Source of the DNA: Promethearchaeota archaeon
GTDB lineage: Archaea > Asgardarchaeota > Lokiarchaeia > Sigyniarchaeales > SOKP01
NCBI GenBank assembly: GCA_019058245.1
Contig: JAHPZJ010000023.1
Span: forward strand, 34,028 to 98,027
Length of the DNA: 64,000 nt
Direction: 5' to 3'
Part shown: positions 41,253 to 45,750 of the stretch, piece after piece
Layout of the letters: each line of letters opens with the position of its first letter
Position numbering within the stretch: position 1 is the first letter of the stretch
Made by a program: the position numbers and the translations under genes
The notes under the pieces: generated by a model
Database searches by the model: none
Told to the model about the DNA's origin: nothing
The model's input: only the letters and a program-made list of their open reading frames with translations

Positions 41253-42428
41253 TTATACCATATCTACAAACTTTCCAGATTTAAGTAATTCACATGGTTT
41301 TAGATAAGATTTACCTAAATTTTCGGCAGTTTCTTCTAAAAGACTAGCAAATCGTTCATAGTTCTTAGTCGCAGATTCCATTGGCCCTGGAAAATTCATA
41401 CCTGCTAAGATTGCTTCATCGATAACTTTCCAACTTGAAACAACTCCTTCTTCCAATATTCTACAACCTTCATTAGCTGCAATTGCGGTAAAAATATCGG
41501 GATTAACAATTCCTGCTTTTTTAGAGAGATCAGGTTGAGGTCTCCCTTTTGTCCAATCATAAAATCCTTGTCCTGTTTTTTTACCTAGTGTTCCTTTTTC
41601 TACTTGCATTTTTGTTACTTTTCCCGGACCGAAATCGGATGAAAGTTTTTCTGCATAATAAAGCCCACCATGATATGCAATATCACGTCCTGTAAAATCT
41701 GCTAATGTTAATGCAGTCATTGGAGCATTTGGGTTAGATAAATCAGCATCTACTTCTTCCCAAGGAATGCCTTTCTCATACGCCATATCAAGAATGTAAT
41801 TAGTATAGATACCTCGAGGTGCAAGTACACGATTAACAATAAAGCCAGGGCGATCTTTTAACACCTTAGCAACATATCTTTTTCCTCTCAAAACTGGCAG
41901 AGTTTCTGCAACTTTTACCCCTATTTCCATAGATTCATCAGAACTCTTATCTCCTTTAATTATTTCTACGAGACGCATCAAGGGAGCGGGATTAAAGAAA
42001 TGCATACCTATTACATTTTCAGGTTTGTTACATTTTTCAGCAATCTCAGTAATACTCATCGTGGAAGTGTTTGAAGCAAAAATACAATGATCAGGAGAGT
42101 TTTCAATAACATCCTTACAAAGCTTTTGTTTTAAATTTAATATTTCTGCAACTGCTTCAATTACTAAATCTGCATTCTTAGAAGCTTCAATAATATTATC
42201 AGATGTTTTTAATTTTGCTATAAAATCTGCCGCGCTAGAACCTGCAGGTAAAATTCCTTTTTCTTCTAGTTTTTGGAATCCTGTTTTTATGTAATTTGTG
42301 CCTTTTTCAATGATTTCACTATTTACATCAACCGCTGTGACATTGTATCCTGCCATTAAGTAAACTTGGGCAATCCCTTTTCCCATATCGCCAAAACCTA
42401 GCTGAACTATATTCTTAACATTTGTCAT
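41253..42428 (-). CDS. 3-hydroxyacyl-CoA dehydrogenase (long form, two C-terminal domains)
   Basis: GFGDMGKGIA, ASNTST, GMHFFNP, PGFIVNR. Confidence 0.93.
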   Translation of the reverse strand: MTNVKNIVQLGFGDMGKGIAQVYLMAGYNVTAVDVNSEIIEKGTNYIKTGFQKLEEKGILPAGSSAADFIAKLKTSDNIIEASKNADLVIEAVAEILNLKQKLCKDVIENSPDHCIFASNTSTMSITEIAEKCNKPENVIGMHFFNPAPLMRLVEIIKGDKSSDESMEIGVKVAETLPVLRGKRYVAKVLKDRPGFIVNRVLAPRGIYTNYILDMAYEKGIPWEEVDADLSNPNAPMTALTLADFTGRDIAYHGGLYYAEKLSSDFGPGKVTKMQVEKGTLGKKTGQGFYDWTKGRPQPDLSKKAGIVNPDIFTAIAANEGCRILEEGVVSSWKVIDEAILAGMNFPGPMESATKNYERFASLLEETAENLGKSYLKPCELLKSGKFVDMV

Positions 42429-42907
42429 TTATATCAACTCTAATTTGTTATGTAAATTTAAGTTATAACTATACACAATAAATTAAAAAATCTTGGAAAA
42501 GAATTTTGAAAAGGCAAAAAAGAAGTATCAAATAATATAAGATTAAATTAAAGATCTACTAATCCATATAACAACTAATTTTAAAATCGATATTATTTAT
42601 ACAAAATATTCTCATAAAATTCTTCTTTGGAAACAAGATGTTCTGAATTTGTTGTTGATTATTGAGAGAAGTTTTATAATTTTACGGGAATAAATTGCTA
42701 AATGAGATATGAGAGAATGATGAGAAGAAAATTATGATACAAATAATAAGTAATTTTTATTAATTTTAATCTTCTCTTATTTCTCTCTAATGAATAAGTA
42801 AAATAGCGATCAAACTTTCATTAACTCATTACATAAAATGTATTTAAACATCATGCATTTTTATAGTTAAGGTTCAGTTAATAATAAAAAGGAAGGTTGA
42901 ATTTAAG

Positions 42908-45184
42908 ATAGAAGCAAAAAAAGATGACATTAAAATAGTTAAAACCGGTTGTTGTCATGATTGTGGAGGGCGTTGTGTTCTACGTGTTCATATAAGAGAT
43001 GGAAAGATCATTCGATTAGAAACCGATAATAAAGAACAACCACAATTAAGAGCATGTTTAAGAGGAAGAGCCTATAGACAGAGAATATATTCTGATGAGA
43101 GACTTAGGCACCCTTTACGTCGTGTTGGTAATCGTGGTGAAGGAATATTCGAAAAAATATCGTGGGATGAAGCATTAGATGAAATAACTTCTAAAATTAA
43201 AGAAATTAAAAAAAAGTATGGAAATTCTGCCATATTACTTGTTCCTGGAAGTGGAAATCAAGGGATGCTCCATGGAATTACTCCTCATGCATTAATGCTT
43301 AATCAAATTGGAGGATATACTAGAATGTGGGGTGCTGCCTCCTATGAAGGTGCTCTCTTTGCTTCTATGGCAACATATGGCACATTGATGACTGGAAATG
43401 CTAGAGAAGATCTACTTAATTCCAAATTTATAATAATGTGGGGTTGGAATCCAGCAAATACTATTTGGGATCCTGGTACGAGTTTATGGTTGGCTAGAGC
43501 TCGAGAAAAGGGAATAAAAATATTAGCAATTGATCCAATATTCACAGATTCTGCCGCGACTCTAGCACACCAATGGATTCCTATTCGTCCAGGTACCGAT
43601 ACTGCTATGCTATTAGCTATGGCATATGTGATTATTACTGAAAATTTGCACGATAAATCTTTTATTGAAAAGTATACAGTGGGCTTTGAACAATTTAAAG
43701 AATATATAATTGGCAATGAAGATGAAAATCCAAAAACTCCTGAATGGGCGGAAAAAATTACATCTGTACCCACAGAAACAATTATTAATCTTGCCCGAGA
43801 GTATGCTACTACAAAACCTGCTACTCTGATTGCTGGTTGGGGTCCTGCTAGAACAATGTTTGGTGAACAATACTCTAGAGCTGCTAACATATTATGTACA
43901 ATAACAGGCAATATTGGAATTAATGGTGGTTACGCATCTGGTTTTATGCGTGCCTATTATAGTCGAGAGAGAATTATTACAGGTGGAAGAAAAAAAACAG
44001 GTCCAATCAATTTAGAAGACAAAAAACCTAAAAAACCTAGGGTCCAAGATAATCTTGTTGATTTAAATGCTCCTCCTCGTAAAGATAGTCTTTATAAATT
44101 AAGAGGTGGAACTAATCCAGCAAATACTCGGATTCATTCTAATGATTATTATAATGCAATGCTAAATGGTCGAAAGGGAGGGTATCCCGCTGATATTAAA
44201 ATGGCATATATAGTAGCAACGAATCGTTTAAACCAGTATGCAAATGTCAATAAAGGTATTAAAGCTCTAAAATCTCTAGATTTTATCGTAGTATATGAAC
44301 AATTCATGACTCCTACAGCACAATTAGCAGATATTGTTTTACCAGTTAATACATTTATGGAACGCAATGATATTGCAGTTCCATGGTTAGGATCGCCTTA
44401 TTATATCTATTTAAACAAAGCAATTGATTCCTTATATGAATCAAAATCAGATTTAGAAATATGTAAAGAATTATCGAAAAAATTGGGAATAAAAAACAAT
44501 CTATTAGATTTATCAGAAGATGAACTTCTAAGAATGTTTACAGCTCCTCGAAAAGATATAAAAAATTACAATAAGATGAAGAGAGATGGATATTTTAAAG
44601 TTAAGGTAGAAGAACCTTTTGTTGCCTTTAAAGAGCAAATTAAGGATCTTGAGAATAATCCCTTTCCTACATTATCGGGAAAAATTGAAATTTTTTGTGA
44701 ACATATTGCTGAGAAGAATAATCCATTAATGCCTCCAATTCCAAAATATCTAACCCATGAAGAACATTATGATTCCCCTAAAGCGAAGAAATTTCCATTA
44801 CAACTTCTTACTCCTCATAATAAAAGAAGGACCCATTCTACTTTAAGTAATATTCCATGGTTAGAAGAGGTAGAAACTCATGCGGTTTGGATAAATTCTG
44901 TTGATGCTCTGAAACGCAACATAAATAATGGAGATATAGTAGATGTATTTAACGATAGAGGTAGGATTAGAATTCCTGCTAAGGTTACAGAACGTATTAT
45001 ACCTGGAACTGTTTGTATCTATCAAGGAGCATGGTATAATCCAGATAAAAGTGGTGTGGATCTTGGTGGCTGTGCAAATGTTTTAACAAATGATAGTTAT
45101 TCTCCTGGTGGTGCATTTCCTCTAAATAGTTCGTTAGTTGAAATTGAGTTAACTCCTAAAAATAAAATAGAGGTATTTAAATGA
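42908..45184 (+). CDS. DMSO-reductase-family molybdopterin oxidoreductase catalytic subunit (DmsA-like), no Tat signal, probable ATA start
   Basis: The frame is open 119 codons upstream of ATG 43265 and holds CCHDCGGRC...ACLRG...RLRHPL...ISWDEA. There is no in-frame ATG/GTG/TTG after TAA 42845. Confidence 0.88.
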   Translation: MEAKKDDIKIVKTGCCHDCGGRCVLRVHIRDGKIIRLETDNKEQPQLRACLRGRAYRQRIYSDERLRHPLRRVGNRGEGIFEKISWDEALDEITSKIKEIKKKYGNSAILLVPGSGNQGMLHGITPHALMLNQIGGYTRMWGAASYEGALFASMATYGTLMTGNAREDLLNSKFIIMWGWNPANTIWDPGTSLWLARAREKGIKILAIDPIFTDSAATLAHQWIPIRPGTDTAMLLAMAYVIITENLHDKSFIEKYTVGFEQFKEYIIGNEDENPKTPEWAEKITSVPTETIINLAREYATTKPATLIAGWGPARTMFGEQYSRAANILCTITGNIGINGGYASGFMRAYYSRERIITGGRKKTGPINLEDKKPKKPRVQDNLVDLNAPPRKDSLYKLRGGTNPANTRIHSNDYYNAMLNGRKGGYPADIKMAYIVATNRLNQYANVNKGIKALKSLDFIVVYEQFMTPTAQLADIVLPVNTFMERNDIAVPWLGSPYYIYLNKAIDSLYESKSDLEICKELSKKLGIKNNLLDLSEDELLRMFTAPRKDIKNYNKMKRDGYFKVKVEEPFVAFKEQIKDLENNPFPTLSGKIEIFCEHIAEKNNPLMPPIPKYLTHEEHYDSPKAKKFPLQLLTPHNKRRTHSTLSNIPWLEEVETHAVWINSVDALKRNINNGDIVDVFNDRGRIRIPAKVTERIIPGTVCIYQGAWYNPDKSGVDLGGCANVLTNDSYSPGGAFPLNSSLVEIELTPKNKIEVFK

Positions 45185-45750
45185 AACAAATGGGTTTTTA
45201 TTTTGACCAAACGAGATGTATTGGTTGTTATACATGTGTATTAGCTTGCAAGGATTGGAATGATCTTCCTGTTGGTGTTAATTGGAGAAAAGTCAAAGTT
45301 ATTGAGGATGGAATATTTCCTGAGTTGTTTTTAGCTTATTTATCAATTGCTTGTAATCATTGTGTTAATCCACCGTGTATAAAAGCATGTCCTGTGGAAG
45401 CTATCACTAAAAGAGAATCAGATGGAATTGTTATTGTTAATTCTAAGAAATGTGTAGGAAAGAAAGAGTGTGATGCAATATGTTTAAAAGTCTGCCCTTG
45501 GGATATTCCAGAATTTCGTGATGATGATAATTCAAAAATGGAAAAATGTAATTTTTGTTTTGACCGTCTAGAACAAGGAAAACAAACTATTTGTGTGGAA
45601 GCATGCCCCATGTATGCTCTTGATGTAGCACCATTAGAGGAATTGCAAAAAAAAAATGGTGATATTCATGAAGCAGAAGGTTTTAATTATTATGAGAAGG
45701 TCAGACCATCTATAATATTCAAGCCAAAATTTAAAAAGCAGAAATATTAG
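45181..45750 (+). CDS. DmsB-like 4Fe-4S dicluster subunit
   Basis: CIGCYTCVLAC, CNHCVNPPCIKACP, KCNFC and CVEACP; overlaps the upstream stop. Confidence 0.92.
   Translation: MKQMGFYFDQTRCIGCYTCVLACKDWNDLPVGVNWRKVKVIEDGIFPELFLAYLSIACNHCVNPPCIKACPVEAITKRESDGIVIVNSKKCVGKKECDAICLKVCPWDIPEFRDDDNSKMEKCNFCFDRLEQGKQTICVEACPMYALDVAPLEELQKKNGDIHEAEGFNYYEKVRPSIIFKPKFKKQKY

Follow-up and report, generated by a model that had tools for sequence, protein, structure and literature searches.

How is translation started in a gene whose conserved N-terminal domain lies upstream of every canonical start codon in its frame? This question is raised by a molybdoenzyme gene in the genome of an uncultured, Loki-type Promethearchaeota archaeon, of which a window of 64,000 nucleotides (the whole stretch of DNA analysed, to which all coordinates without a contig name refer) was studied here. 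An earlier note on this DNA had stated that the Fe-S motif CCHDCGGRC precedes the first in-frame ATG (43265), that no ATG, GTG or TTG occurs in frame between this ATG and the preceding TAA (42845), that GGAAGGT is found about 10 nt ahead of ATA 42908, and that the rest of the gene and its partner are intact. All of this was confirmed: the motif begins at 42950, GGAAGGT occupies 42891–42897, the frame is open to 45184 with three Pfam domains, and the DmsB-like partner is intact. In our reading, to which we assign a probability of roughly three in four, the locus holds a functional cytoplasmic DmsA-like gene that lost its ancestral ATG. Translation would now begin at a near-cognate codon (most likely ATA 42908) placed by GGAAGGTTGA. 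The features of the locus are collected in Table 1.

Table 1. Position of features at the dmsA-like locus within the window.
Feature	Position	Strand	Basis or remark
Conserved non-coding block, TCTTCTCT..TTCTCTCT..GAATA[A/G]nTAAAATAG[C/T]GATCAAAC	42770..42826	+	22-ortholog upstream alignment
BRE/TATA-like element ACATAAAATGTATTTAAAC (orthologs CATAAAAAGTATTTAAAC)	42831..42849	+	near-invariant in 20 of 22 aligned orthologs
In-frame TAA, upstream limit of the open frame	42845..42847	+	sequence
Shine-Dalgarno-like GGAAGGTTGA	42891..42900	+	duplex with the 16S 3' tail of a congener
AAG at the aligned site of the ancestral ATG (-57 from the CC motif)	42893..42895	+	ortholog comparison
ATA, most likely start codon	42908..42910	+	SD, conservation, coding onset, genome statistics
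dmsA-like molybdopterin oxidoreductase, proposed CDS, 758 codons and stop	42908..45184	+	Pfam PF04879, PF00384, PF01568
Out-of-frame ATG mini-ORF (MTLK, then stop)	42924..42938	+	absent from the earlier note
CCHDCGGRC, N-terminal 4Fe-4S (FS0) Cys motif	42950..42976	+	Pfam, sequence
First canonical in-frame start, ATG; public gene-call start (639 aa), would delete the Fe-S domain	43265..43267	+	
dmsB-like four-cluster ferredoxin partner, ATG start	45181..45750	+	overlaps the dmsA-like stop by 4 nt

A dmsA-like gene without a canonical start codon

Counted from ATA 42908, the Molybdop_Fe4S4 domain covers residues 9–62 and is followed by the Molybdopterin and Molydop_binding domains. All three score above the gathering score, which places the protein in the DMSO reductase superfamily, and TMAO and DMSO reductases are its nearest solved structures. 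It resembles the DmsA/YnfE-type S-/N-oxide reductases (with DmsB) in the FS0 Cys motif, the Molybdopterin and Molydop_binding domains and the adjacent gene for a DmsB-like four-cluster ferredoxin. On the other hand, there is no twin-arginine signal peptide (no RR motif in any ortholog, and at most 19 residues ahead of the FS0 motif), no adjoining DmsC-like anchor gene, and the NCBIfam scores are below cut-off, i.e., 666.6 bits against 777.7 for TIGR02166, which leaves the protein outside the DmsA/YnfE subfamily as this model delimits it, and 178 bits against 214 for the partner with TIGR02951. We therefore regard the protein as a cytoplasmic relative. A paralog with 53% identity on contig C13 (L021:1350-1650) has kept its ATG start and has a degenerate FS0 motif (SSSAFDCGGRC) with two of the Cys replaced.

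The molybdoenzyme frame is open from 42848 to 45184 (778 codons), and the stretch between TAA 42845 and ATG 43265 holds the Fe-S motif together with 105 further conserved codons. The 139 start-less codons make up the tenth longest such stretch in the genome, in which 56 of the 2386 stop-to-stop ORFs of at least 150 codons have a start-less stretch of at least 60 codons; about one such ORF is expected by our estimate from base composition if all starts were canonical. The length of the start-less stretch in the dmsA-like gene is far beyond chance.

Near-identical sequences have 639, 749 and 775 aa according to gene finders and public records, which mis-place the gene start. The product on record for this contig is an exact match to the 639 aa that follow from ATG 43265. 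Cluster mates (at least 90% identity) are annotated with 775 aa (MFIVK..., from an ATA or ATT right past the TATA box) or 749 aa (MVKTGCC...), the NCBI pipeline start for two orthologs is the equivalent of ATA 42935 (749 aa), and one identical sequence is annotated both as 775 and as 749 aa. The 758-aa model proposed here is used by none of the public annotations found. The near-identical NCBI proteins are labelled as coming from Promethearchaeota MAGs and, in one case, from Odinarchaeota.

The genome itself (G000) is an AT-rich Asgard MAG in 31 contigs, which is 76% complete and encodes TBP. It contains eight ORF pairs (e.g., C4:22301-22831 and C10:105950-106747) where a long ORF continues a high-scoring ORF in another frame, i.e., frameshifted genes or assembly indels. 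An 808-codon ORF on the minus strand of C13 (190857-193283) adjoins an in-frame TGA, upstream of which another 465 codons show good coding potential, and may be a selenocysteine or read-through gene or else a nonsense pseudogene.

Recurrent loss of the ATG under purifying selection

The earlier note had suggested comparing the start codons of orthologs, and these turn out not to be uniformly ATG. Searching the genus twice yielded 31 distinct orthologs. A canonical start is present in 19 of them, as ATG (17) or TTG (one) at -57 from the CC motif or as ATG at -51 (one), and is absent from the frame in the other 12. In these 12 the -57 codon is AAG (this genome, G052 and G024), ACG (two), ATA (two), AGT (two), GGT, AAT or AAA. 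The nearest ATG-bearing ortholog reads TGG ATG GTT GAA where this genome reads AGG AAG GTT GAA, and the T-to-A change that removed the old ATG in the clade of this genome gave rise to AAGGT, the SD core. In a maximum-likelihood tree the canonical start was lost at least five times, with four well-supported sister pairs or clades and at least one more case: L052 and L010 (each sister to an ATG form), L011 with L042, and L009 with L047 are start-less, and one to three further lineages are made up by L008, by L003 with L006, and by the clade of this genome. Loss of the ATG is seen only in the clade where GTGA or TTGA is followed, after 6–7 nt, by ATA or ATC at -42. An element of this type is found 6–7 nt upstream of -42 in most of the clade, ATG-bearing forms included, and it is missing from the outgroup clade of nine, in which the ATG was never lost.

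Whole-gene dN/dS is 0.12 for L001 vs. L002 and 0.11 for L003 vs. L006, both of which are pairs of start-less genes, and ranges from 0.08 to 0.12 across the comparisons of the dmsA-like gene. In start-less pairs it is 0.09–0.23 for the N-terminal 119 codons, i.e., those upstream of the first ATG. CCHDCGGRC is identical in 31 of 31 collected orthologs; as these were collected by a codon pattern for CCHDCGG, the identity was independently observed for the last two residues only. The low dN/dS in the start-less N-terminal part indicates that this part is translated and in effect excludes gene decay and assembly error. These comparisons demonstrate that an intact dmsA-like gene under purifying selection is without a canonical start, and that the loss of the start has recurred in its orthologs.

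Genes often begin to decay by losing their start codon, and as public gene calling gives the 639-aa product, it could be argued that the gene is decaying or that just a truncated protein without the Fe-S domain is made from ATG 43265. This is very improbable: all 778 codons are open, the ORFs of the 12 start-less orthologs, which represent at least five separate losses, are equally intact, the dN/dS of 0.09–0.23 applies to exactly the part upstream of 43265, and the FS0 cysteines are kept in every collected ortholog. That a sequencing or assembly error hides an ATG, a possibility brought up in the earlier note, has some basis in the incompleteness of the MAG and in its frameshift-like ORF pairs. 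It is however practically negligible, since the independently assembled G052 and G024 share with this genome both the AAG at 42893 and the ATA at 42908, and nine further species are without the ATG through different substitutions.

Candidate start codons and the upstream region

As G000 is without an assembled 16S, the 16S 3' tail GGATCACCTCC was taken from the congener G023. The duplex of GGAAGGTTGA with this tail has an energy of -6.6 kcal/mol and ends 6 nt ahead of ATA 42908. Among the in-frame near-cognate codons, no other has a 6-nt spacing from an SD of -6 kcal/mol or better. Values of this size are not rare by chance, -6 kcal/mol being reached by 11.6% of internal in-frame ATA codons. 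The best of the other in-frame near-cognates, ATA 42881 and 42884, reach -4.8 kcal/mol at a site that is not conserved, and ATT 42929 and ATA 42935 just -1.6 kcal/mol. By a model of codon usage, coding is estimated to set in at 42896. The codon at -42, i.e., ATA 42908 in this genome, is ATA in 10 and ATC in two of the 12 start-less orthologs. The SD at -42 is good in L001, L002, L031, L003, and L006, and weak or oddly spaced in the start-less L008, L009, L010, L047, L042, and L052; one mechanism may therefore not fit all, and the model is best supported for the clade of this genome together with L003 and L006.

It is probable that the SD-less ATG became dispensable as an SD-led ATA was available five codons further on, and that the ATG was then lost repeatedly. 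In this genome the change from ATG to AAG at 42893 would have removed the ancestral start, and a near-cognate codon, most probably ATA 42908, would be positioned by the SD-like GGAAGGTTGA at 6–7 nt, with the initiator tRNA presumably still supplying Met. In the genus as such, SD-directed initiation would tolerate AUA, AUU, and AUC and, more rarely, ACG, CUG, and GUU. Some kind of near-cognate initiation at the dmsA-like gene is highly probable, and ATA 42908 specifically is favoured as the start codon with more reserve. The proposal in the earlier note of AUA initiation at 42908 behind GGAAGGT thus finds support in the orthologs, the SD and the start statistics of the genome, from which we infer the exact codon.

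A near-cognate start at another in-frame codon, i.e., ATT 42929, ATA 42935 (the 749-aa model) or ATT 42857 (the 775-aa model), is unlikely by comparison. Near-identical orthologs do begin with MVKTGCC or MFIVK in public records, nearly all orthologs have an Ile codon at -18, and initiation without an SD exists, most ATG genes of this genome being without a strong one; furthermore ATT 42929 and ATA 42935 sit just ahead of the first beta-strand and would both give plausible N-termini. However, these two codons are without an SD, whereas the non-canonical starts of this genome sit behind one, ATT 42857 is just 9 nt past the conserved TATA box and hence probably untranscribed, and the coding potential sets in around 42896. 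Another possibility is that translation begins at the out-of-frame ATG 42924, which reaches a stop after four codons, and shifts by -1 on A-AAA-TAG into the main frame. The ATG is followed by TTA AAA TAG, where a P-site slip of tRNA-Lys is permitted, and the same arrangement is found in L002, L031, L008, and L010. But either the ATG or the AAAA slip site is absent from the start-less L003, L009, L047, L011, L042, and L052 (6 of 12), no SD precedes 42924, and this ATG arises trivially from Asn/Asp-Glu/Asp codons and is present in ATG-bearing orthologs too, so that frameshifting, with elements missing in half of the start-less orthologs, was rejected and deserves hardly any weight.

Two further explanations were discarded. 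AAG 42893 has no SD and was rejected as a start codon; AAG is found just once at the SD-defined position in the genome, with an ATG directly after it. Reassignment of AUA to Met was rejected as ATA, ATC and ATT replace one another at conserved Ile positions.

Directly upstream of the BRE/TATA-like element lies a conserved block of about 55 nt, composed of a pyrimidine-rich part and GAATAGATAAAATAGTGATCAAAC (also written TCTTCTCT..TTCTCTCT..GAATAnnTAAAATAGnGATCAAAC). It is kept in most of the 22 upstream regions (about 20 species) despite saturated synonymous sites (between-clade dS about 1), and is a candidate regulator binding site, i.e., an operator or activator site. In archaea the distance from the TATA box to the transcription start is usually about 25 nt, and with this spacing transcription would start near 42865–42871. 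An Rfam scan of the window and of 42400–43100 gave no riboswitch or leader family (e.g., the Moco riboswitch) near gathering score.

Start codon use in the genome and in known systems

The cleanest test of the start codon habit of the genome was provided by ORFs that open with the TGA of GGTGA, and where the codon six bases past the motif was scored (n = 54). This codon was ATA in 11 cases, ATG in 10, ATT and TTG in seven each, ATC in four, GTG in three, and ACG and CTG in two each, i.e., ATA is the commonest codon 6 nt past GGTGA genome-wide. ATH was found in 22 of 54 cases at this position vs. 4 of 57 two codons downstream (Fisher p = 3e-5). A control sample of 800 kb, from a complete genome of equal GC that belongs to a different family within the order, had ATG in 20, TTG in three and ATH in three of 44 cases at spacings of 5–7, and the corresponding ATH count in the present genome is 46 of 173 (p = 0.004). 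For another genus of the same family (G093, 800 kb) ATH amounted to 5 of 34 at the start vs. 4 of 32 at control spacings in what is a small sample. Codons ATA, ATT, and ATC about 6 nt past an SD are common starts in this genome, and ATA 42908 fits this habit.

In nine other genes with ATA, ATC, ACG, CTG or GTT at the position 6 nt past GGTGA, a Pfam match begins 2–33 residues behind this codon and the next canonical start is 42–125 codons downstream. For eight of the nine the match begins within 2–16 residues and at profile position 1–4, and for the ninth, a 4Fe-4S protein, from residue 33. Their families are ApbA, aldo-keto reductase, cytidylyltransferase, RagA-like and Ras-like GTPases, ThiF, two 4Fe-4S proteins (one an ETF fusion) and an XPD-type helicase. 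The cytidylyltransferase gene (L090:1-486; G000 C13:108303-108848, minus strand) has its domain from residue 6 past a GTT that lies 6 nt behind GGTGA, and as no ATH or canonical codon is nearby, GTT is a possible start. The RagA/Gtr1-like and Ras-like GTPases (L091, G000 C13:27249-28088; L092, C15:76236-76874) are among the genes with ACG or ATA starts, and standard gene calls would cut the P-loops off these Asgard "eukaryotic signature" proteins. About 20 of the 56 long start-less ORFs are ordinary genes with P-loop, Rossmann, GGTFD or helicase N-terminal motifs in the start-less part, and some are frameshifts, shadow ORFs or TGA read-through. Start-less genes that were picked regardless of SD had stronger SD sites than controls (p = 6e-4).

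A search for SUI1 (aIF1) in this 76% complete genome was negative, but aIF1 is encoded by 47 of 52 congeneric genomes, and its loss was rejected as a cause of relaxed starts. In five congeners (G024, G005, G052, G015, and G008; loci L098, L099, L100, L101, and L102, each 1-701) the zinc-ribbon N-terminus of aIF1 (ICPICSFPKELCIC) is itself upstream of the first canonical start (codon 23–54), and the ORF opens with GGTTGTGATAA GAG AGT ATT, where ATT is likely to be the start codon. A search for a variant initiator tRNA (ARAGORN with and without introns; Rfam tRNA in the complete congener G006) gave no CAU, UAU or GAU candidates of interest, with too few tRNAs recovered. It is tempting to speculate, although we do so tentatively, that SD-directed initiation in the genus has become largely independent of AUG, GUG or UUG, so that AUA, AUU, and AUC are routine and AUG has repeatedly been lost harmlessly.

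Full-text literature searches gave no report of widespread non-canonical starts in Asgard archaea. What is new here is that, within a single gene family, the ATG was lost repeatedly on a resolved phylogeny while selection persisted, and that a genome of a different family of the order gave a negative control. By extension of the dmsA-like case, dozens of other starts are probably mis-placed in these genomes, with functional Fe-S, P-loop and Rossmann N-termini cut off. The dmsA-like gene is also a natural experiment as sister species differ just by ATG vs. ATA, ACG, AAG etc., and the leaders of sister orthologs are ready-made constructs for the study of SD-dependent near-cognate initiation.

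Near-cognate starts are known from other systems. NCBI table 11 lists ATA, ATT, ATC, and CTG as initiators, and infC and pcnB of E. coli start at AUU; the AUU start of bacterial infC is paralleled by the apparent ATT start of aIF1 in the congeners. The likeness to SD-led near-cognate starts in bacteria consists of a codon one mismatch from AUG, a normal SD distance and a normal, conserved product. The differences are that the present case is from an archaeon, with aIF1/aIF2-type initiation, that near-cognates are here not confined to a handful of regulatory genes, with ATH used by about 40% of the cleanest strong-SD class, and that the AUG of the dmsA-like gene was replaced repeatedly in evolution. 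This archaeon is a close relative of eukaryotes, in which eIF1 polices AUA, AUU, and AUC, and frequent AUA, AUU, and AUC starts in an Asgard lineage bear on the evolution of start codon fidelity towards eukaryotes. Eukaryotic near-cognate initiation (eIF1/eIF5) involves the same codons (AUA, AUU, AUC, ACG, and CUG), and aIF1 is the eIF1 homolog here. In eukaryotes, however, it is a low-level alternative that depends on scanning, whereas here it is SD pairing at a fixed spacing that would select the codon, and the use of near-cognate starts looks constitutive.
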